From a virus, in IMG/VR virus record IMGVR_UViG_3300027782_000054, positions 1 through 64,000 of that record: a stretch of 64,000 bases of DNA, one strand, 5' to 3'. Shown in pieces: positions 2 through 39,537 of the stretch. The first letter of the stretch is position 1. Every line of letters starts with the position of its first letter. The notes beneath the pieces were generated by a model. The model made no database searches, was not told the DNA's origin, and was given only the letters and a program-made list of their open reading frames with translations. A program made the translations under genes and the position numbers.

Positions 2-739
2 CACTGGGAAGATGTCATCATTGATCTATCAGAAGAAGATCGTAAACTTTATGACTATGTACTCGACACTATCTTAAATGATGTTGACGATGACAAAGTT
101 TTGTCTAGCATTCTTATGTTGCAATTAATATGTGACAACCCAGATCTTATCAACTTCTCTAATGGAGATTTTGCAGCAGAACTGAGAAGTAAGAAAGTCT
201 TCACAGATAACAACAGCGCAAAACTTCAAAAGCTAAAAGATCTTCTATCAGAGATAGACGGCAAAGTTGTTGTTTTTAATATGTATAACGAGCTAGGTTC
301 TGAACGTCTCTATCATTACATTTGCAACTGGGGATATAACGCAGTTCTCTATGATGGATCTGCAAGCGATAAGCAGAAGGCAGAAGATGCCTTCCGTAAC
401 GATCCCTCCGTCAAAGTCTTCGTATCTTCTGACAAAGGGTCAGACTCAATCAATCTAGAACAAGGGTCATCTGTTATTAATTATAATTTGCCATGGAAAC
501 ATACAACGCTCATTCAAAGAGTAAACAGAATAAATCGCCTAACTTCAAATCATGACAATATCTATTATTATAACTTACTAATCGCAGATTCTATTGAAGA
601 TAGAAAGTTAGAGATCCTAGAGCAGAAGAAACAGCTTCAAGAGTCAATCTTCACTGGAACAATATCTGATCATGCAGATGCCCTTGAAGAGCTTTCCAGG
701 AAGAACTTACACTACATCCTTACTGGCAGCAACTCTTAG
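2..739 (+). CDS. SNF2/SF2 helicase C-terminal part (5'-truncated by window)
   Basis: Frame is open from base 2. HELICc motifs: KVVVF, FVSSDKGSDSINL, YNLPW, QRVNRINR. Confidence 0.8.
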   Translation, partial: HWEDVIIDLSEEDRKLYDYVLDTILNDVDDDKVLSSILMLQLICDNPDLINFSNGDFAAELRSKKVFTDNNSAKLQKLKDLLSEIDGKVVVFNMYNELGSERLYHYICNWGYNAVLYDGSASDKQKAEDAFRNDPSVKVFVSSDKGSDSINLEQGSSVINYNLPWKHTTLIQRVNRINRLTSNHDNIYYYNLLIADSIEDRKLEILEQKKQLQESIFTGTISDHADALEELSRKNLHYILTGSNS

Positions 740-1417
740 ACCCTTAAAGACTGCAGAGAAGCTGGGCTTCTGCTTGTACGTTGCAGAATTCGTAGAAGAA
801 GCTACCTGAGCATTTGGATTAATTACTACAGGAGCAGCATACTCTGAGTCTTCTTCAATGTATTCATTGCGAATGGCATCATAAAGACGATCAATCTCTT
901 TATTAGGAAGAATGAATCCCTTATTACCATACCTCATAACACGCTGAAGAGTTTTCTTGCCACTGTCAATGTTATGTACGCTTAGTGTTTTAGTAGCAAG
1001 ATCAATAAAATAATTATAAGTACAGTAGAGTACTTCGCCATCCGTCGCACACATACAGATATTAAGGTCAAAAGAGAAGATAGTATGCTCAGGATTAGAA
1101 AAGGTTCTGAGTGGAAGATCATATGAGACTCCTTCTAGGACATAGATCTGAGAGATTGGTGAACTATCTAGCAGGGTCGCTCCCTTAGCTACCAGACAAG
1201 CAATGACTCTATCACGGACCTGTGAATCTACACAGTAGATATCAATATCTCTAGGAGTCTCATCTAGGAAGTAAGAGCGCATAGCACCACCAGCAATCCA
1301 GAACTTGCCCTTAAGCCAAGCTGGAAATAGGCGGAAGAAGTTCTCTTCAAAAAGACGAATACAGTCTTTAATAGACTCAGGGCAATCATCGTCTAAGTAG
1401 TATGCGTTAGCGAACAT
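707..1417 (-). CDS. tRNA nucleotidyltransferase/poly(A) polymerase-like protein (head domain only)
   Basis: IAGGAMR...RDIDIY (GGxVR...DxD) and FDLNIC (DFTIN-like). Adjacent to CCA-less tRNA cluster. Confidence 0.75.
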   Translation of the reverse strand: MFANAYYLDDDCPESIKDCIRLFEENFFRLFPAWLKGKFWIAGGAMRSYFLDETPRDIDIYCVDSQVRDRVIACLVAKGATLLDSSPISQIYVLEGVSYDLPLRTFSNPEHTIFSFDLNICMCATDGEVLYCTYNYFIDLATKTLSVHNIDSGKKTLQRVMRYGNKGFILPNKEIDRLYDAIRNEYIEEDSEYAAPVVINPNAQVASSTNSATYKQKPSFSAVFKGLRVAASKDVV

Positions 1418-2217: not shown

Positions 2218-2289
2218 AGCTCTATCAAGGACTTGAACCTTGCACTTATCCTTACAAGGGATATGTTTTGCCTGATAAACTAATAGAGC
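2218..2289 (-). tRNA. tRNA-Thr(TGT)
   Basis: GCTCTAT/ATAGAGC acceptor stem, TATCC-CTTGTAA-GGATA anticodon arm, GGTTCAAGTCC T-arm. Confidence 0.9.
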
Positions 2290-2292
2290 AAG

Positions 2293-2368
2293 CTCCGGGG
2301 GTATGAATCGAACATACGAATTTTGGGTTCAAAGCCCAACGATTAATACCAACATAATCTACCCCGGA
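2293..2368 (-). tRNA. tRNA-Gln(TTG)
   Basis: TCCGGGG/CCCCGGA acceptor stem, TTGGG-CTTTGAA-CCCAA anticodon arm. Confidence 0.9.
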
Positions 2369-2371
2369 ATG

Positions 2372-2581
2372 TTATTTATTTTTTGTTGTATGTGCGTAAA
2401 CTGTGTCCATCATTTTAAATACGGGAACAAAAGCTTTCTTAGATCCATCTCCATTGCATTCTGGGCAGTAATCATTATCTAGTTTCTCTTTGGAATAGAA
2501 ACAATGATTCTTTGGACAAAACCAAATACCCCTGAAGACTTCTGACTGATAAAACTTTTGCCATTTTTCATCATCTGTCAT
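2372..2581 (-). CDS. Small Cys-containing hypothetical protein
   Basis: 69 aa, CPKNHC and CPEC motifs, coupled to the upstream ORF. Confidence 0.65.
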   Translation of the reverse strand: MTDDEKWQKFYQSEVFRGIWFCPKNHCFYSKEKLDNDYCPECNGDGSKKAFVPVFKMMDTVYAHTTKNK

Positions 2582-2775
2582 ATATCTATCCAGATTTCTT
2601 CAGATTGATTTTTCTTATTGTTTACTCTTCCCCATTCTTTTGCTGCAGCAATAGCCTGCTTCTCTGTATTGAAGGTTCCTATTGGACGCTTTGGAATGAT
2701 TGTAGCAGAAGCTTGTATATAATAGGCATCTGCTTTCCATTGCCCTTCTCCTGTTTTATATATTCTAGCTTTCAT
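2578..2775 (-). CDS. Hypothetical protein
   Basis: 65 aa. ATG lies 2 nt after tRNA-Pro 3' end. ATGA overlap with next gene. Confidence 0.65.
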   Translation of the reverse strand: MKARIYKTGEGQWKADAYYIQASATIIPKRPIGTFNTEKQAIAAAKEWGRVNNKKNQSEEIWIDI

Positions 2776-2777
2776 AA

Positions 2778-2852
2778 TCGGGATGACAGGATTCGAACCT
2801 GCGATTTTCGCGACCCAAACGCGACGGATTAGCCAAACTTTCCCACATCCCG
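2778..2852 (-). tRNA. tRNA-Pro(TGG)
   Basis: CGGGATG/CATCCCG acceptor stem, TCGCG-TTTGGGT-CGCGA anticodon arm. Confidence 0.9.
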
Positions 2853-2858
2853 ATAAAC

Positions 2859-3011
2859 TTATCTTACTGACTCTAGACTACATTCCTCTTCGCACTTATC
2901 ACAACAATTACATTTCTGATCATCAGTATCGTCCATATCTTGCTTGGGGCAATAGTGGCGATAACCGTCTACTGGATAGCCACAGCTTTCACAAGGCTCT
3001 GTGTTAGACAC
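2859..3011 (-). CDS. 50-aa Cys-rich protein (not in ORF track)
   Basis: Hand translation from GTG: MSNTEPCESCGYPVDGYRHYCPKQDMDDTDDQKCNCCDKCEEECSLESVR. Confidence 0.55.
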   Translation of the reverse strand: MSNTEPCESCGYPVDGYRHYCPKQDMDDTDDQKCNCCDKCEEECSLESVR

Positions 3012-3153
3012 TCTTGCTCTTCCTGAAGGAATTCCAATCGTTGCTATTTGCGGGCTTGTGTTCCTGGCTCCATGAGCGAATACGATCCCACTCCTTCACT
3101 CTATCACGTTGTCCCGAAGGTTGCAAGTCTTGACGAGACTTGTTTTTGTGCAT
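3004..3153 (-). CDS. 49-aa hypothetical protein (not in ORF track)
   Basis: MHKNKSRQDLQPSGQRDRVKEWDRIRSW...; fills the gap in the operon. Confidence 0.4.
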   Translation of the reverse strand: MHKNKSRQDLQPSGQRDRVKEWDRIRSWSQEHKPANSNDWNSFRKSKSV

Positions 3154-3169
3154 TTGTTGAAAAGATGAT

Positions 3170-3559
3170 TCAGTTGTCATTCATTAAGCCTTTCTTGCGT
3201 TCTTTTCCCTTGTGAGTAAGGGAGAAAGTAGGATTATCTCCCTCTACATCATTTTCATCAAAATAGACATGAACATCGCCTGATAAGATAAGATTGATAA
3301 GATCGACACCAATCTTCATCCTGTTGTGCCAGTTTAGCAGCTTCCAGATCTCATTGACGGTTGGAGATCCTGCCTCACGCATATTCATACTATCTATAAA
3401 CCTTACAATAAGAAGCTCCTCTTCTTCAAGCTCTTTCTCAAGAGTACCTCTACGAAGAGCATTAATCGCTTCGGCAGATAAATCTATCTGAGAGTCTTCC
3501 TGAAACTCATCATCAGAAGCATATAGTTCAGAATCTTCATCTTCTTCAAAATAGGTCAC
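3170..3559 (-). CDS. Acidic hypothetical protein
   Basis: 129-aa ORF coupled to the MazG stop. Confidence 0.7.
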   Translation of the reverse strand: MTYFEEDEDSELYASDDEFQEDSQIDLSAEAINALRRGTLEKELEEEELLIVRFIDSMNMREAGSPTVNEIWKLLNWHNRMKIGVDLINLILSGDVHVYFDENDVEGDNPTFSLTHKGKERKKGLMNDN

Positions 3560-3864
3560 TTACTATGCCTCTCTTTTAGTTTATCGATATTGAATTTTGC
3601 AACGTCTTCTAGACGGAAGTCTAGCTCACTGCATAGATTGGCTACATACCATAGCACATCCCCTAGATCTTCGTATAAGTTCTTGAGGCGATCATCAGGG
3701 AAGTCTGACCCATCTGATAGGTAACCCCTACGCAGACACTTCTTGACCTCTTCTGCGACCTCTCCGGCCTCTCCAGCGACTCCCAGAGCAAGGTAGGATG
3801 CAGCTACATCCTTGGGGTAGATTGCTGTTTCTTTTGCTTGTTGTTGATATTCATTTAGATTCAT
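3556..3864 (-). CDS. MazG-like NTP pyrophosphohydrolase
   Basis: LGVAGEAGEVAEEVKK...EDLGDVLWY...NIDKLKER. True start MNLNEYQ, since the longer ORF overlaps tRNA-Leu. Confidence 0.9.
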   Translation of the reverse strand: MNLNEYQQQAKETAIYPKDVAASYLALGVAGEAGEVAEEVKKCLRRGYLSDGSDFPDDRLKNLYEDLGDVLWYVANLCSELDFRLEDVAKFNIDKLKERHSK

Positions 3865-3866
3865 AA

Positions 3867-3950
3867 TGGGAACGGTGGGAGTCGAACCCACATGGGCTTG
3901 CGCCCGACGCATTTTGAGTGCGTTCCGTAAACCAGTTCCGGCACGTTCCC
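3867..3950 (-). tRNA. tRNA-Leu(CAA)
   Basis: GGGAACG/CGTTCCC acceptor stem, ACGCA-CTCAAAA-TGCGT anticodon arm, long variable arm. Confidence 0.92.
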
Positions 3951-3978
3951 AGGTGTGGGGTTGCCCCCACATCATACA

Positions 3979-4740
3979 CTACTGCCAGTTGACGAAGGCT
4001 GCGATGTTCTTCACATAACGAAGACGCTGTGCAACCTGACCACCGTTACTCTGACTACCCTTTTCGCTTGAGGAAGTATTTCCCTCGACAGCATAGAAGG
4101 AAGTCTTCTCCTTATCGGCCCACTTGATGAAGAGTCCAATATGATCCGGTACCCCATCCTTCTGCCAATCGAACAGTACAACACTGCCCTTGACAGGAGT
4201 GGTCGTGATAGAAAGACCATTGCTCTTGGTCTGGGCATCACGAAGTACATTCGGGCAGTAAGAATATGTCTTACCCTTTACGAATGACTTTGATCCAGCC
4301 TGAACAGCACACCAAGTTACGAACATGGCACACCACGGACCATTGACTCCATACCATTTTGAGAACTCAACAATATTGCTCTCGGGCGGATCTTCAGCAA
4401 CATTCAGCTTAGATAGACCGACATCTACAGCCTTTGCATACTTAGCACCTACATCGCCCTGAGCCTTCTTGTAGGCTTCAGCCCTCTTGAGCATATCCGG
4501 ACCCTGCTGAGTATTGCAAAGAAGATAATCCTCAAATACCTGATCGTATAGTGAAGTTGCAGAAGCTTCGGTATAACCTAGCTCACGCTTTGCATTAACG
4601 ATGGCTCCGGCAGTACGCTCACCGAACTCACCATCGATATCTCCACCATAGAACTTGGCCTTCTTTAAATTTTGCTGCGCCTTCTTTACTGCATCGCCCT
4701 TCATATTTGGCGACGTTAGCTTGAGGGGTGTTGTTGGCAT
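3979..4740 (-). CDS. Endolysin: peptidoglycan-binding domain + CHAP amidase
   Basis: N-terminal GDAVKKAQ..DGEFGERTAGAI. CHAP motifs PWCAMFV, DHIG, VEGNT. SD AGGAG. Confidence 0.88.
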   Translation of the reverse strand: MPTTPLKLTSPNMKGDAVKKAQQNLKKAKFYGGDIDGEFGERTAGAIVNAKRELGYTEASATSLYDQVFEDYLLCNTQQGPDMLKRAEAYKKAQGDVGAKYAKAVDVGLSKLNVAEDPPESNIVEFSKWYGVNGPWCAMFVTWCAVQAGSKSFVKGKTYSYCPNVLRDAQTKSNGLSITTTPVKGSVVLFDWQKDGVPDHIGLFIKWADKEKTSFYAVEGNTSSSEKGSQSNGGQVAQRLRYVKNIAAFVNWQ

Positions 4741-4771
4741 TCATTCTCCTTTTGTTATTTACTAGATTAAG

Positions 4772-4846
4772 TAGACAGGGTGGGACTCGAACCCACATTT
4801 GACACTGCTTATAAGACAGCCGCCTCCACCATTGGGCTACCTGTCC
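4772..4846 (-). tRNA. tRNA-Ile(TAT)
   Basis: GGACAGG/CCTGTCT acceptor stem, GCTGT-CTTATAA-GCAGT anticodon arm, GGTTCGAGTCC T-arm. Confidence 0.85.
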
Positions 4847-4857
4847 AAGCATAGCTT

Positions 4858-5037
4858 TTACAATCCTATAAGCTTTGTCAATTCTTTAAATACCGGCACT
4901 TTTTCCCAGAGCAAGTGTTCAAAAGGAAAACCTAAGGTTGTTCCGATCCAGAACTGCCAAGTTAGAGTTAGGTTCCGGCACTTATGGTAGCACTTATGAA
5001 GGATCCCATCTGTATCTGAGTGGAAGTGCGATGACAT
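4858..5037 (-). CDS. Small hypothetical protein, probably leaderless
   Basis: ATG lies 6 nt after the -10 box. 59 aa with a hydrophobic/aromatic core. Confidence 0.6.
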   Translation of the reverse strand: MSSHFHSDTDGILHKCYHKCRNLTLTWQFWIGTTLGFPFEHLLWEKVPVFKELTKLIGL

Positions 5038-5043
5038 GACTTC

Positions 5044-5071
5044 AGTATAGCAAAGACACATGTCCTGTCAA
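5044..5071 (-). promoter_or_regulatory. sigma70-type promoter
   Basis: TTGACA-16 bp-TATACT with extended -10 TG. Confidence 0.7.
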
Positions 5072-5095
5072 GAGGAAAGGGGGCTTTCGCCCCCT
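5072..5095 (-). terminator. Rho-independent terminator
   Basis: AGGGGGC-GAAA-GCCCCCT followed by pyrimidines on the minus strand. Confidence 0.75.
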
Positions 5096-5124
5096 AACCT
5101 TGAAACTTTACTGAATGTTTACAT

Positions 5125-5391
5125 TCAGGATGTTTGACGCAGAACATCGCCATAGGCTCTTGAAAGATCAAAGCCATCGGCAGGAGCAAGAGCGCCATTG
5201 TTAAGTTGACCCTTTTGATTAAATTCTGTAACAACAATCTTGCCAGCCGTATTGTCGATACCTTCATCTACAAGGGCATCGCTTAAGCCAAGATAAGCAG
5301 GTGTAGGATTATTGGGGTTTACGCCAATACCATCTGTATGAAAAACACCAGAGGCAGCAGTCTTTTTGTAGTTTTTCTGATCGTTAGTCAT
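5125..5391 (-). CDS. Hypothetical protein (possibly virion)
   Basis: 88 aa, SD GAGG. Confidence 0.7.
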   Translation of the reverse strand: MTNDQKNYKKTAASGVFHTDGIGVNPNNPTPAYLGLSDALVDEGIDNTAGKIVVTEFNQKGQLNNGALAPADGFDLSRAYGDVLRQTS

Positions 5392-5400
5392 GATTCCTCT

Positions 5401-5649
5401 TTATATCTTAGATTTATTTACGGTTGTATAAGAAGCCTGGAAATCTGTAGCGCCATTGTCTGAGTCTGTTCTGAAGACTTTGGTCTGAACCTGGACATTG
5501 CGATCCTCCGCTGCGTAAGCAGCGCGAGCTACTTCATTATAGGTATTAACAGGTCTTGTCTCTGTATCAGTGTAGACAGTTCCGGTCTGCGCCGCAAAAG
5601 CGTAAGCACCTGGAATGTTTAGAACAAAAGATGATGAAGATGTAGCCAT
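5401..5649 (-). CDS. Hypothetical protein (possibly virion)
   Basis: 82 aa, Ala/Thr-rich, SD AGGAGG. Confidence 0.7.
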   Translation of the reverse strand: MATSSSSFVLNIPGAYAFAAQTGTVYTDTETRPVNTYNEVARAAYAAEDRNVQVQTKVFRTDSDNGATDFQASYTTVNKSKI

Positions 5650-5702
5650 TAAGTATTCCTCCTATATTTTAAGCATAGGAAGATAGAAAGATAAAGGTAC
5701 TA

Positions 5703-5775
5703 AGGCCCCTCCAAGGATCGAACTTGGGCTTGGGAGGTAGAAACTCCCCGTGATAATCCACTTCACTAAGGGGCC
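5703..5775 (-). tRNA. tRNA-Arg(TCT)
   Basis: GGCCCCT/AGGGGCC acceptor stem, GGGAG-TTTCTAC-CTCCC anticodon arm. Confidence 0.85.
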
Positions 5776-5800
5776 ATGTTGGGGAGCTAGGCTCCCCGTA

Positions 5801-7075
5801 TTACTTGATGTACTCTTTAAGTGTCTTAATTTTACCAAAAAGATGGCTTGAGCGTAGGTAATAACCGTCAAGAAGCCAGAACCAGTTGTCTTTGTGCTTA
5901 TCTTCTGGCTTTGCTCCATAGAATGATGCATCACCATCAGTAATAACAACAACAGACGAAGGGTACTTGTTCTTGTACTTAGGCATAACAGTACTGCGGA
6001 TATAGCTTTCAATGGGGCTAAATGAAGTACCCCCACTTTGGAACCTTGGATTGTCAAGATCCAGAGGCATAACTGAATCTGTAAACGTAATTACTTCTAG
6101 ATGAATATTATCACGCGGGATTGAGCGAGCCAGGGTGATGAACTTTCTTGCCGTATCATCACCGATAGAACCCGATGTGTCAAGTGCCATAAAGATGACA
6201 GGCTTCTCACCGAACTTGTTCTGCTTGCTTACCTCCTTGACAGGCAGGATGACCTCTGGGAAGCCACCAAGCTTGCGAGGACGGCGATGATACGAAGGGC
6301 GAGGCTTCTTGCCACCCTTCATGTTAAAAATGTCTGGATCAAGCTCCTTGAGTAGATTGACCCAATTCATAGATACACCATTCACTTCAATGAACTTCTG
6401 GGCATCCATAGAACCAGTACCAGCGCCACTACCATGAATAGTTACATTACTCTTAGCATTGATATCATCTTTGATATCTTGAAGCTCAGAAGGAAGAATT
6501 GCATTACCAGCAATTTGTTCTAGAATCTTCTTTGCAAGTGAGTCCGGAACATGAATCCAGTCATGGCTATCAATATTCATGCCTGCACCCATCTGATCCA
6601 CAATGTCCTGGGGGAGATCGTCATAGACTTGACCTACTGTCACATGGGCGCAGTTATACCCCACATTCTTCTGACCAGACATAAGTTGATCCATGATGTT
6701 CTGTGATGCATCAAATCCAGCTGAGATAAGGTAATCATTGATAACACAATCTGCTGCGATGTTAAATCTAACCTTATCAGAGAAGCGTGGAGCTAGATTA
6801 AGGTGATCTAGAATAATATGCATAGTCTCATGTGCAAGAACAAATGCGTAGTCCTCTACATCAAGCTGATCAGCGAAGTCAGGATTGAAAGCAAAGTAAA
6901 AATCATCACCTGCCTTTCCTGACTTCGCTGTTTCTATATCAGTCATAACACATGCAGTTGGAACAATATTGGTATCTACAGGCTTACCAATATTAAGAAC
7001 ATGGGTTACAAAGAATGCGAACTGAGAATCAAGAAGCCGAATTGCTTCGCTATATTTAGAACGGGACATTGGCAT
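5801..7075 (-). CDS. HExxH metallopeptidase-VWA domain protein (DUF2201-like)
   Basis: LAHETMH, NIAADCVIND, MIDAS DTSGS, GGTSF, VITDG. Confidence 0.88.
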   Translation of the reverse strand: MPMSRSKYSEAIRLLDSQFAFFVTHVLNIGKPVDTNIVPTACVMTDIETAKSGKAGDDFYFAFNPDFADQLDVEDYAFVLAHETMHIILDHLNLAPRFSDKVRFNIAADCVINDYLISAGFDASQNIMDQLMSGQKNVGYNCAHVTVGQVYDDLPQDIVDQMGAGMNIDSHDWIHVPDSLAKKILEQIAGNAILPSELQDIKDDINAKSNVTIHGSGAGTGSMDAQKFIEVNGVSMNWVNLLKELDPDIFNMKGGKKPRPSYHRRPRKLGGFPEVILPVKEVSKQNKFGEKPVIFMALDTSGSIGDDTARKFITLARSIPRDNIHLEVITFTDSVMPLDLDNPRFQSGGTSFSPIESYIRSTVMPKYKNKYPSSVVVITDGDASFYGAKPEDKHKDNWFWLLDGYYLRSSHLFGKIKTLKEYIK

Positions 7076-21079: not shown

Positions 21080-21804
21080 TGGACTCAACTAAACTAATTA
21101 AATCTTTATCTAGTAAGAATCAAATTCTTGTTCCTCACATTCATCGTTTCCTTGCAGAAGCAGACCTCCCTGCTCAATGGATAATCAAGATTGCAAATCA
21201 AAAAGAGAAGCGTGAGTATGGTGAAGCAGATATTCGCTTTAGTCCAAGCTCAGATACCCTCACTTCAGTAGAGGATCTTGTTAGTAAATATACTGATGGG
21301 AAGCCTTATGATCCAATCAGTCCTAACATGAGAATGACCTTTGACATTGGAACCATGTGGCATGAGTACCTTCAGAATATTATTAAGGCCATGAACTTTG
21401 TTCCAGATGAAGGTGTTGAGAAATATTTCATTAAGAAGATTGAGAGGCCAGCAGGCATTGCTTATACTTCAGGACTAGGTGACTTAGTCGGAGTAAATAT
21501 TCCAGGTCATGGATCTTGGCTTGTAGATATCAAGACAATGAATAAAAGAAGTTTTGATAATCCTCCTACAGACCTAATGCAGAAATATACTGCTCAGATT
21601 AATTTGTATGGAGATTGGTTTGGATATGATAAGCTAATGATCCTTGCTGTCTCAAAAGATTCTCCACATGATTTTAAAGAGCTTATTACTCCATCTAATC
21701 CATACTTAGTAAATGAAATCTATGATAGATGGGTTGAAGCATATGGTAAGATCAAAGAATGGCAGAATGGCAATTGCAGGAGCAATGATTTTACATTTAA
21801 TTAA
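21079..21804 (+). CDS. Cas4/RecB-like PD-(D/E)XK exonuclease
   Basis: FSPS, GTMWHE, GLGD, VDIKT, QINLY. Confidence 0.8.
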   Translation: MDSTKLIKSLSSKNQILVPHIHRFLAEADLPAQWIIKIANQKEKREYGEADIRFSPSSDTLTSVEDLVSKYTDGKPYDPISPNMRMTFDIGTMWHEYLQNIIKAMNFVPDEGVEKYFIKKIERPAGIAYTSGLGDLVGVNIPGHGSWLVDIKTMNKRSFDNPPTDLMQKYTAQINLYGDWFGYDKLMILAVSKDSPHDFKELITPSNPYLVNEIYDRWVEAYGKIKEWQNGNCRSNDFTFN

Positions 21805-21818
21805 TATTATGTTATAAT
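21790..21818 (+). promoter_or_regulatory. sigma70-type promoter (leaderless gene)
   Basis: TTTACA-17 bp-TATAAT with extended -10, ATG 7 nt later. Confidence 0.65.
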
Positions 21819-21825
21819 ATGTTTT

Positions 21826-22389
21826 ATGAAAGTATTATCAATAGATCCAGGCAATCAACGCATGGGTCTTGCTTCTTTGAATCAAGACAAAGATGGAGTC
21901 ATACACTTAGGACCATGTAGTTTAATTTTAAATCCTAAAGACGAAAGTATTCCATTTAATAAGTATTTAAATAGGGGGATAGCTCAGATTTGTGAGCTAT
22001 TCCCCCTTATGCTTCATAAGGTCCAACCCGACTTTATAACTAGCGAGACTGTTCCCGTAGGTAGATTAGGCTCCAATACAGAGCTTGTCGTTGCTTCAAT
22101 CACCGTATGCAAGGTGATCGCTTGGCAATGGGGAGTAGATTGGTATGACATTGCTGCCAATACTGTGAAGAAGCAAGTTACCGATGACGGTAGAGCCACA
22201 AAGTCTAAAGTAAAGCACGCAGTTATAAAACAATTTCCTTCTGTTTTAAAGCAGAATGATGAATACAAGGAACAGCAGAAAAAGGAAGGGTTAAAGCCAG
22301 AGGGTTTTCCTCAGGATCTTTACGATGCAATTGCCATCGGATGGGCAGGCTTAATTAAATATGGAAACCAAGAACAGAAAGGGAACTGA
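21826..22389 (+). CDS. ruvC: RuvC-like Holliday junction resolvase
   Basis: LSIDPG, E in ITSE, VKKQVTDDGRATK, DLYDAIAIG. Confidence 0.85.
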   Translation: MKVLSIDPGNQRMGLASLNQDKDGVIHLGPCSLILNPKDESIPFNKYLNRGIAQICELFPLMLHKVQPDFITSETVPVGRLGSNTELVVASITVCKVIAWQWGVDWYDIAANTVKKQVTDDGRATKSKVKHAVIKQFPSVLKQNDEYKEQQKKEGLKPEGFPQDLYDAIAIGWAGLIKYGNQEQKGN

Positions 22390-37613: not shown

Positions 37614-37641
37614 TTGACAATCACTTCAAGAAGGGTACAAT
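37614..37641 (+). promoter_or_regulatory. sigma70-type promoter (leaderless gene)
   Basis: TTGACA-16 bp-TACAAT, ATG 6 nt later. Confidence 0.7.
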
Positions 37642-37647
37642 GTAGGT

Positions 37648-37848
37648 ATGTCAAAGATATTCTCTAGCGGAATTATGGTCCGCTGCTCAGATAGCCCGTG
37701 TCATCACACGATGATGTACTACGATCCGCTCAAGAAGAGTACGAACACTGATCCTCCGTGGCAGTGTGATCTTTGTAATAGTGGCCGTGGTCCGTTTATT
37801 CCTAAGGATGCCCGTGTAGGTCAGCAGAAACAGAGTAAGGGTAAGTAG
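37648..37848 (+). CDS. Small Zn-ribbon protein
   Basis: CSDSPC...CDLC. Confidence 0.65.
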   Translation: MSKIFSSGIMVRCSDSPCHHTMMYYDPLKKSTNTDPPWQCDLCNSGRGPFIPKDARVGQQKQSKGK

Positions 37849-39071: not shown

Positions 39072-39104
39072 GAAAACCGTCAATTTTGACGGTTTTTCTC
39101 TTTT
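39072..39104 (+). terminator. Terminator hairpin overlapping next -35 box
   Basis: AAAACCGTCAA-TT-TTGACGGTTTT followed by a T-rich tail. Confidence 0.65.
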
Positions 39105-39114
39105 ATGCTATAAT
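39086..39114 (+). promoter_or_regulatory. sigma70-type promoter (leaderless gene)
   Basis: TTGACG-17 bp-TATAAT with extended -10, ATG 6 nt later. Confidence 0.7.
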
Positions 39115-39120
39115 TTTTCT

Positions 39121-39537
39121 ATGATTAAATGGGTAGCTACACTAAGTAATGGAGAAATTGCTACTGAGGGTGAAGAACCCTGGTCAGTAATTCCCGAAGA
39201 AAGACTTCCTTGGCCTCGTCTTTGCAAGTATCTACAAGAAAATAATCTACATATAGATGATGTAAAGATTTTAGATGAAGATAACAATGTAATCTTGACA
39301 CAAGTTGAAGATGAGTGGAATAGCAAAGGAGAACAACCTCTATATTACTCTATTCAATATGATGTAGAATTAGACAACATTTTGGGCGGTGGAGTATCAA
39401 AGACATTCCTCCATCTCGCCAGTCATTATGATGACCATATTGAGCATTTCTATATAGACTTTGATACTAAAGAAGTCAGATCAGAAATCACAGAGAAATA
39501 CAGCCCAATAGTTCCAAGTCCTTCTAGAAAAGAATAA
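39121..39537 (+). CDS. Hypothetical protein
   Basis: 138-aa acidic ORF. Confidence 0.7.
   Translation: MIKWVATLSNGEIATEGEEPWSVIPEERLPWPRLCKYLQENNLHIDDVKILDEDNNVILTQVEDEWNSKGEQPLYYSIQYDVELDNILGGGVSKTFLHLASHYDDHIEHFYIDFDTKEVRSEITEKYSPIVPSPSRKE

Follow-up and report, generated by a model that had tools for sequence, protein, structure and literature searches.

A close counterpart of the arrangement treated here is the tRNA punctuation of animal mitochondria, which involves RNase P and RNase Z/ELAC2 (PMC3790967, PMC8601606). RNase Z cuts CCA-less tRNAs immediately past the discriminator base and the trailer begins with U (PMC8549757), and leaderless translation is prevalent in Actinobacteria (PMC3848588, PMC4681348). 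Here we analyzed the first 64 kb (64,000 nucleotides, nt; hereafter the window) of a 95,174-bp IMG/VR virus record (IMGVR_UViG_3300027782_000054; CheckV completeness about 60%), which comes from an uncultured freshwater phage and has near-identical DNA in many freshwater and lake metagenomes. The 95-kb record carries 12 tRNA genes, eight of them in the minus-strand stretch from 5775 to 1558, mixed with small genes, and past two of these eight, tRNA-Leu and tRNA-Pro, a protein gene starts only 2 nt downstream. The original prediction held that excision of such tRNAs makes the translatable mRNA end, in a mitochondria-like way. Our sequence analysis supports this interpretation in part, and we regard it as somewhat probable.

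The tRNA ends were set by the Infernal/Rfam tRNA model, with ARAGORN as comparison. The ARAGORN ends of tRNA-Leu and tRNA-Pro were off by one base, and the Infernal ends were preferred because only the Infernal register yields U8, A73 and, for tRNA-Pro, C1-G72. The two junctions consist of the features below, where L081 and L082 are related metagenome contigs that encode the DUF2201 protein of this region at 100% and 96% identity, respectively, and keep the tRNA order:

3867 to 3950, minus strand: tRNA-Leu(CAA), A73 at 3867, no CCA (Infernal, 54.8 bits)
3865 to 3866, minus strand: TT spacer from A73 to the MazG ATG, read from the sequence and kept in L081, L082 and four further variants
3556 to 3864, minus strand: MazG-like pyrophosphohydrolase of 102 amino acids (aa), first cistron after tRNA-Leu (PHROG 229, Pfam MazG)
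2778 to 2852, minus strand: tRNA-Pro(UGG), C1-G72, A73 at 2778, no CCA (Infernal, 59.4 bits)
2776 to 2777, minus strand: TT spacer from A73 to the ATG of the 65-aa gene, kept in L081, and in L082 beside a different tRNA-Pro allele
2578 to 2775, minus strand: 65-aa gene with weak DUF2188 likeness, first cistron after tRNA-Pro (10 variants, all of 65 aa with an MKARIYK start)

The results showed that the geometry had been described correctly from the letters: Infernal and the sequence both place the 3' ends of tRNA-Leu and tRNA-Pro at 3867 and 2778, and behind each come TT and an ATG (3864 and 2775, respectively), and there is indeed no room for a Shine-Dalgarno (SD) motif, as the 15 nt before each ATG are acceptor and T stem and hold no GGAG-like motif. 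The tRNA 5' ends were also rightly seen to lie a few nt past stop codons, with 3 nt between TAA 2374-2372 and tRNA-Gln (2368) and 6 nt between TAA 2861-2859 and tRNA-Pro (2852). An encoded CCA follows none of the 12 tRNAs of the record, in agreement with the CCA-less state that had been claimed; this state is needed by the model, yet it is no discriminator on its own. An abutted start, with a gap of 0 to 3 nt, was found for two of the eight tRNAs of the block, both with the form A73-TT-ATG, and the chance that at least two of 12 tRNA positions have an ATG exactly 2 nt downstream that opens at least 60 codons is 7e-4. Folding predicted that the processed RNA 5' ends would be unpaired over about 39 nt for MazG and about 8 nt for the 65-aa gene.

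The mechanism that we propose starts from a minus-strand polycistronic unit running from about 5071 to 2200, in which CCA-less tRNAs would alternate with short gene blocks. To mature, each tRNA would be cut by the host RNase P at its 5' end and, directly behind the discriminator at its 3' end, by RNase Z or an endonuclease of like function, and CCA would then be added. The 3' cut at tRNA-Leu and tRNA-Pro would leave the downstream RNA with a 5'-p-UUAUG end, which may be translated by the leaderless route, as for the promoter-made leaderless genes of the same phage, and the later cistrons of each block would be reached by coupling via overlapping stop and start codons. The uncut precursor would have its AUG 2 nt from the acceptor helix, so poor initiation is expected, and expression of MazG and the 65-aa protein would thus be tied to tRNA maturation. 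Co-transcription, the cleavage positions, initiation on a 2-nt UU leader and protection by hairpins are steps that we infer from the layout.

The earlier idea is strengthened by the leaderless promoters of the genome itself. A promoter scan identified ATGs 6 to 7 nt past a consensus -10 box at six sites in the record (21826, 37648, 39121, 68515, 83761 and, on the minus strand, 5037), with promoter-to-ATG spans of 21790-21826, 37614-37648, 39086-39121 and 5071-5037 (minus strand) in the window and 68479-68515 and 83727-83761 in genome coordinates. The gene at 21826 has a RuvC-like N-terminus (MKVLSIDPG) and that at 68515 a GT2-like N-terminus. At the first five sites a stop codon in the same frame lies shortly before the ATG and no other start is available, whereas the ATG at 5037, 6 nt past its -10 box, has an in-frame ATG 24 nt upstream inside the promoter. 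The number of promoter-abutted ATGs expected by chance is about 0.3 by our own estimate from composition and open reading frame (ORF) frequency (P about 1e-6), and when the count is restricted to ORFs of 60 codons or more, five of eight promoter-proximal genes have an ATG abutting the -10 box. This pattern indicates that the phage makes promoter-driven leaderless mRNAs as a rule and not as an exception, from which it follows that its host should translate leaderless messages. The best cellular matches of the endolysin were from Nocardioidaceae and Gaiellaceae and its best phage matches from Actinomyces and Bifidobacterium phages, and MazG and tRNA-Pro are similar to Streptomyces phage counterparts; the affinities of the endolysin and MazG weakly indicate an Actinomycetota host. 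No WhiB was found in the record.

The two junctions themselves have no such promoter. There is no -10-like hexamer 6 to 8 nt upstream of the ATG at 3864 or 2775, the scan returned no site able to place a transcription start at either junction ATG, and the nearest promoter-like match (2789-2762, 9/12) would start transcription downstream of 2775. An internal promoter or another start for either gene, which the original prediction had named as evidence that would count against it, was thus looked for, and none fits.

The same layout is found in other phages. In Streptomyces phage StarPlatinum (Karimacvirus), two annotated small coding sequences (CDSs) begin one base past the discriminators of tRNA-Lys(CUU) and tRNA-Lys(UUU), with the form A73-C-GTG (L118 38327-38809, i.e., record positions 94326-94808). 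The two junctions lie at 94401 and 94656 of NC_048721, and the products have 56 and 50 aa. The second tRNA-Lys junction is kept in phages Spelly and Starbow despite differing N-terminal residues, and in Starbow a 141-nt insert parts the first tRNA-Lys/CDS pair, where the old start is ATG. We also scanned IMG/VR with a pattern of T-loop, N11 and TTATG, which returned at least 119 stretches, of which 80 loci were examined and the junctions confirmed by ARAGORN; at least 66 tRNA-TTATG junctions are present in IMG/VR. Among the matches listed, 53% of the tRNA-TTATG sites open at least 50 codons in comparison to 23% of random TTATG sites of the same loci (P = 2e-7), and after dereplication, again among the matches listed, 24 of 47 open long ORFs (P = 4e-5); several of these ORFs have canonical N-termini. 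Distances from the other 277 tRNAs of the listed loci to the first long ORF have a bimodal distribution, peaking at 0 to 3 nt and 14 to 22 nt and with a trough at 4 to 13 nt. An ATG at a gap of 0 to 3 nt follows 16 of these 277 tRNAs (6%) in the junction phages in comparison to 2 of 369 (0.5%) in an unbiased phage tRNA sample (P = 9e-5). The layout is thus uncommon overall but recurrent in certain phages, as predicted by a host-dependent mechanism. Promoter-abutted ATGs stood at 10 against 19 in phages with tRNA-TTATG and at 8 against 37 in generic phages, a difference that was not significant (P = 0.16). Some IMG/VR phages (L169, a 373-kb contig; L167, L172 and L166) have three to five tRNA-abutted starts each, and in L167 a Dcm-like methylase (MKVGSLFAGIGGFDLGF) lies directly after tRNA-Glu. 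A scan for the exact patterns of both junctions gave no match in IMG/VR with the source record excluded. The T4 tRNA island region has no start abutting a tRNA, segB lying 41 nt after tRNA-Ile. Our literature search returned no paper on tRNA-generated leaderless mRNAs in phages or bacteria, and none treating the Streptomyces-phage junctions as a mechanism.

A broader reading would be that in a subset of phages, including this one, the Streptomyces Karimacvirus and many IMG/VR contigs, first cistrons are deliberately placed 0 to 3 nt past CCA-less tRNAs, that excision is obligatory for their translation, and that the 3' endonuclease of the host makes 5'-monophosphate leaderless mRNAs; we put this forward tentatively, as something that may well not hold in full.

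The upstream side of the tRNAs was described as carrying GC hairpins without a U tract between the upstream stop and the tRNA 5' end, and sequence and folding bear this out for both:

about 3954 to 3972, minus strand: hairpin UGUGGGG-GCAA-CCCCACA with a GCAA tetraloop and no U tract, ending 3 nt before tRNA-Leu (-13.6 kcal/mol for a 35-nt stretch)
5781 to 5797, minus strand: hairpin GGGGAGC-CUA-GCUCCCC with a 7-bp stem, CUA loop and no U tract, ending 5 nt before tRNA-Arg (-13.9 kcal/mol, z -4.0)

Both hairpins are identical in L081 and L082, and hence there is no covariation. The RNase P cut would leave them as 3'-terminal stem-loops, which may slow 3' exonucleases on the upstream mRNAs.

Conservation of the 2-nt gap, proposed earlier as a check, was examined in relatives, and the gap is kept in all of those seen, all of which are very close. 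The tRNA-Leu-TT-ATG junction is present in L081 and L082 and the tRNA-Pro-TT-ATG junction in L081 with a compensated acceptor-stem change, and the contigs of relatives from three DNA runs are free of indels at both junctions. A third junction occurs in L081, tRNA-Gly(U73)-TT-ATG ahead of a 159-aa gene with a PHROG match from residue 1; this gene has been inserted, with a duplicate of the tRNA-Gly 3' end at its flank. In L082 the TT gap is kept beside the different tRNA-Pro allele, the 65-aa gene has ATA at its start and the 69-aa ORF is deleted; the nearest protein variant, P0127, keeps M1. None of the 80 loci of a MazG-based IMG/VR scan has a tRNA directly upstream of MazG, and conservation is thus shown among very close relatives only. 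The DUF2201 protein scan of IMG/VR gave no match, and L083 (68% identical) has no tRNA in the 1.2 kb available downstream.

In relatives, single tRNA genes (Arg, Ile, Pro, Thr) have been exchanged for alleles that share the anticodon but are unrelated, and the breakpoints fall either at the borders of the tRNA or within them. The swapped spans are 5703-5777, 4773-4976 and 2778-2852 of the window, 3755-3830 of L081, and 1991-2063 and 4067-4137 of L082, and the contigs of relatives have joints at 5702/5778 and 4773/4976, corresponding to replacement of tRNA-Arg and tRNA-Ile. Ahead of the tRNA-Pro allele of L082 lies the C-terminal end of an HNH-like ORF (...CANCH...). These swaps look like cassette exchange by homing. 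In the window, an HNH endonuclease gene (1717-2127, PHROG 2255; region 1520-2202) lies between a tRNA-Gly 5' fragment and a tRNA-Gly that is complete, differs from the fragment and overlaps with the HNH stop codon, and the insert of about 490 bp is absent from relatives (joint 1672/2162). A 3' remnant of another tRNA-Met was found at 1528-1545, which Rfam calls as a tmRNA 3' end with 17 bits.

Several other explanations have to be weighed, one being that the starts are mis-called, with the real genes beginning elsewhere or the small ORF being no gene. Gene callers on related contigs do push MazG into the tRNA, giving calls of 111 to 138 aa, and a competing 41-aa ORF in another frame has AGGAGA 6 nt upstream of its ATG at 2740. 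The extra MazG residues (VGSTPTVPI-MNLNEYQ), however, merely translate the T arm and acceptor of the tRNA and the hairpin, whereas the PHROG 229 profile covers residues 1 to 99 of the 102-aa form and most of 80 IMG/VR homologues align from residue 1. The MazG frame is open through the entire tRNA-Leu and hairpin, back to an ATG at 3975 (3865-3975, minus strand), which accounts for the inflated automatic calls as an annotation artefact, and the over-extended calls also reveal the same tRNA-Leu-TT-ATG junction in those contigs. The 65-aa frame has no internal start codon, 56 of its 65 positions are invariant across the 10 variants, all with M1, and its 13 codon changes to L082 are seven synonymous third-position and six non-synonymous changes, which indicates that the frame is under purifying selection; the AGGAGA of the 41-aa ORF is weakened to AGAAGA in L082, and that ORF is not conserved like the 65-aa frame. 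The ATGs at 3864 and 2775 are by this evidence the real starts, and mis-calling is very improbable. Granting the starts, ribosomes may initiate internally without an SD on unprocessed or 5'-processed RNA, e.g., via protein S1, in which case translation would not depend on tRNA 3' processing. About 45% of the genes of this genome lack a strong SD, a crude count that is biased by the choice of start codon and is used here qualitatively but suggests that initiation without an SD is frequent in this genome, and the first 30 to 40 nt of both ORFs are A-rich, with the ORF starts predicted to be unpaired. The 30S subunit, on the other hand, covers roughly 15 nt upstream of the AUG, and here a stable acceptor helix stands 2 nt from the AUG, so that the upstream 15 nt or so are buried in the tRNA fold. 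SD-less first cistrons in this genome put their ATG at the transcript 5' end, and each functional tRNA necessarily leaves a trailer starting at the ATG region, all of which makes internal initiation rather improbable in our judgement.

The junctions may instead be a by-product of shuffling, where recombination and HNH-type homing at tRNA borders butt a gene to a tRNA, a transcript gives either the tRNA, its trailer being degraded, or the mRNA, no coupling is designed, and the genes next to the tRNAs may be accessories with weak expression. The swapped tRNA-Arg, tRNA-Ile and tRNA-Pro alleles at or near tRNA borders, the HNH gene in a split tRNA-Gly that relatives lack, the inserted L081 gene with its duplicated tRNA-Gly 3' end, and the ATA start tolerated in L082 along with loss of the next ORF all fit such a history. 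Yet three different tRNAs share a T-rich gap of 2 nt although the genes behind them are unrelated, one being the conserved housekeeping-type MazG, the bimodal gaps with their trough at 4 to 13 nt look like two selected solutions and not random butting, and the 65-aa gene shows the signs of purifying selection given above; moreover, shuffling would account for the origin of the junctions but not for translation of the genes, and we consider it unlikely, though less so than internal initiation. A further alternative concerns the hairpins alone, which may be U-less (I-shaped) terminators or attenuators that set the ratio of the large upstream genes to the tRNA blocks, and not protectors made by RNase P. 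U-less terminators have been proposed for actinobacteria, and both hairpins have stable GC stems and lie directly past the stops of the two longest genes. Full termination, however, would leave tRNA-Leu, MazG and the later genes with only a 9/12 site (4168-4141) inside the endolysin gene, and ends 3 to 5 nt before the tRNA 5' end are the geometry expected of a protective stem after RNase P. The terminator role is possible but doubtful, and the two roles can coexist.

Excision of the tRNAs as the source of the mRNA ends therefore remains our preferred interpretation, and the following points weigh against it. The predicted 5' end has two extra U and is not a terminal AUG, and in E. coli leaderless initiation declines when nucleotides are added at the 5' end. 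Some actinobacteria have no obvious RNase Z (PMC3848588), and no RNase Z-like protein (Lactamase_B_2 match) was found in the 95 kb of the record (about 60% complete). Processing by downstream cleavage and exonuclease trimming would destroy the AUG, and if this route, maybe used in some actinobacteria (PMC3848588), applies, each transcript would yield either a tRNA or an mRNA. The relatives that bear the junctions are very close (65-aa protein 89% to 98%, MazG 98% to 99% identical), and the shallow conservation carries little weight. L082, a single contig, has ATA for the ATG of the 65-aa gene (4138-4345), which is otherwise intact and has no other in-frame start; this may be a recent mutation, an error, or a weak start. 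Finally, the abutted layout is rare in the general phage tRNA sample (the 2 of 369 given above).

The remaining features of the region, in the order of transcription, are as follows:

5801 to 7075, minus strand: 424-aa DUF2201-type metallopeptidase/vWA-like gene, the last before tRNA-Arg (Pfam PF13203, PHROG 1314)
5703 to 5775, minus strand: tRNA-Arg(UCU), no CCA; the next gene is SD-led and 53 nt downstream (Infernal, 57.2 bits)
5125 to 5649, minus strand: two SD-led small genes of 82 and 88 aa with no family match (AGGAGG and AGAGGA before the ATGs)
5078 to 5095, minus strand: intrinsic terminator-like hairpin with a T-rich tail (terminator/promoter scan)
5044 to 5071, minus strand: promoter TTGACA-N16-TATACT, 11/12 matches, directly after the terminator (promoter scan)
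4858 to 5037, minus strand: 59-aa ORF with its ATG 6 nt past the -10 box, a promoter-made leaderless start (promoter scan)
4772 to 4846, minus strand: tRNA-Ile(UAU), no CCA, with the SD-led endolysin 31 nt later (Infernal)
3979 to 4740, minus strand: endolysin (PG_binding_1 and CHAP), SD-led (PHROG/Pfam)
2859 to 3559, minus strand: three small ORFs of 129, 58 and 50 aa, each overlapping the prior stop (GTGA; 11-nt and 8-nt overlaps; sequence)
2372 to 2581, minus strand: 69-aa Cys-rich ORF with an ATGA overlap with the 65-aa gene and its stop 3 nt before tRNA-Gln (deleted in L082)
2218 to 2368, minus strand: tRNA-Gln(UUG) and tRNA-Thr(UGU), 3 nt apart (Infernal)

The 5071-5044 promoter, the nearest strong one upstream of the junctions, is the likely start of the unit that contains both. 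Past it come the 59-aa ORF, tRNA-Ile, the endolysin, a hairpin, tRNA-Leu, MazG with three overlapping ORFs, tRNA-Pro, the 65-aa and 69-aa ORFs, tRNA-Gln and tRNA-Thr, and between this promoter and 2200 only weak promoter-like sites (9/12) and no terminator-like site with a T tail were found. The overlaps suggest translational coupling of the three ORFs after MazG, and the order of the operon thus gives, for each abutting tRNA, one SD-less first cistron and then coupled followers. The small genes at 5125-5649 are the only stretch of the region found in lake metatranscriptome contigs (100% identity) and may be highly expressed; these contigs, from one lake run (X24), cover only 5212-5362 and 5386-5653, away from both junctions, and contigs cannot reveal RNA ends.

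Adjoining the tRNA block, a 236-aa ORF (707-1417, minus strand) has a GG..R...D.D nucleotidyltransferase head motif and matches PHROG 1614 (E 1.5e-12). It was considered as a CCA-adding enzyme and dropped, as it has no PDB sequence match and the ESM Atlas groups it with Gad2 (Gabija anti-defence) clusters with a score of 0.98; it is probably an anti-defence protein.

If the excision model is true, phage tRNA genes double as mRNA-processing signals, a bacterial-virus counterpart of mitochondrial punctuation, which would explain how dozens of small tRNA-island ORFs are expressed without promoters or ribosome-binding sites and would link phage gene expression to the RNase P and RNase Z activity of the host. 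It would also improve start-codon calling, since callers now extend such genes into the tRNA, as with MazG, and would offer a natural template for compact synthetic operons. Should excision be obligatory, auxiliary genes (MazG, nucleases, methylases) would be tied to tRNA-processing capacity, with no promoters or SDs needed inside the islands. Culturable Streptomyces phages with the same junctions make the idea directly testable.

In comparison to known systems, the locus resembles mitochondrial punctuation in that tRNAs lie inside a probable polycistronic unit, the start is 0 to 3 nt past the tRNA 3' end with no SD, and excision would make both mRNA ends. It differs in that only two of the eight tRNAs of the block abut a start while other genes keep SD leaders of 31 to 53 nt, each block comprises several cistrons whose ORFs are coupled, the host is a bacterium, the processing is a prediction, and the 3' ends of the upstream mRNAs would be guarded by encoded hairpins and not by polyadenylation. 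As in the promoter-made leaderless mRNAs of Actinobacteria and lambda cI (PMC3848588, PMC4681348), there is no SD and the AUG would be at or near the 5' end, but the 5' end would arise by processing and not by transcription initiation, with a 5'-monophosphate and a 2-nt UU leader. The leaderless mRNAs attributed to E. coli MazF (Vesper et al. 2011, cited by PMC3848588 and PMC4681348) likewise come from a post-transcriptional endonuclease cut just before the AUG; MazF is a stress toxin that cuts ACA and leaves 5'-OH, and that system is debated, whereas the phage cuts would be constitutive tRNA maturation. Bacterial tRNA-mRNA operons (secG-leuU, metT; PMC2241853) also have a shared transcript split by tRNA-processing enzymes (RNase P/RNase E). 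Unlike at the phage junctions, the mRNA in these operons has an SD leader or precedes the tRNA, and the cut is not considered a requirement for translation. Another mixed tRNA-mRNA operon is tyrU-tufB. Phage tRNA islands, such as the T4 segB region and that of the Streptomyces Karimacvirus, similarly have tRNAs amid small ORFs and HNH/GIY-YIG genes, with stops a few nt before tRNA 5' ends; the likeness extends in Karimacvirus to a CDS starting 1 nt past the tRNA-Lys discriminator, whereas T4 has no abutting start. If the model holds, the arrangement is a variant of three known kinds of system, namely tRNA punctuation as in mitochondria, leaderless translation, and operons that mix tRNA with mRNA.

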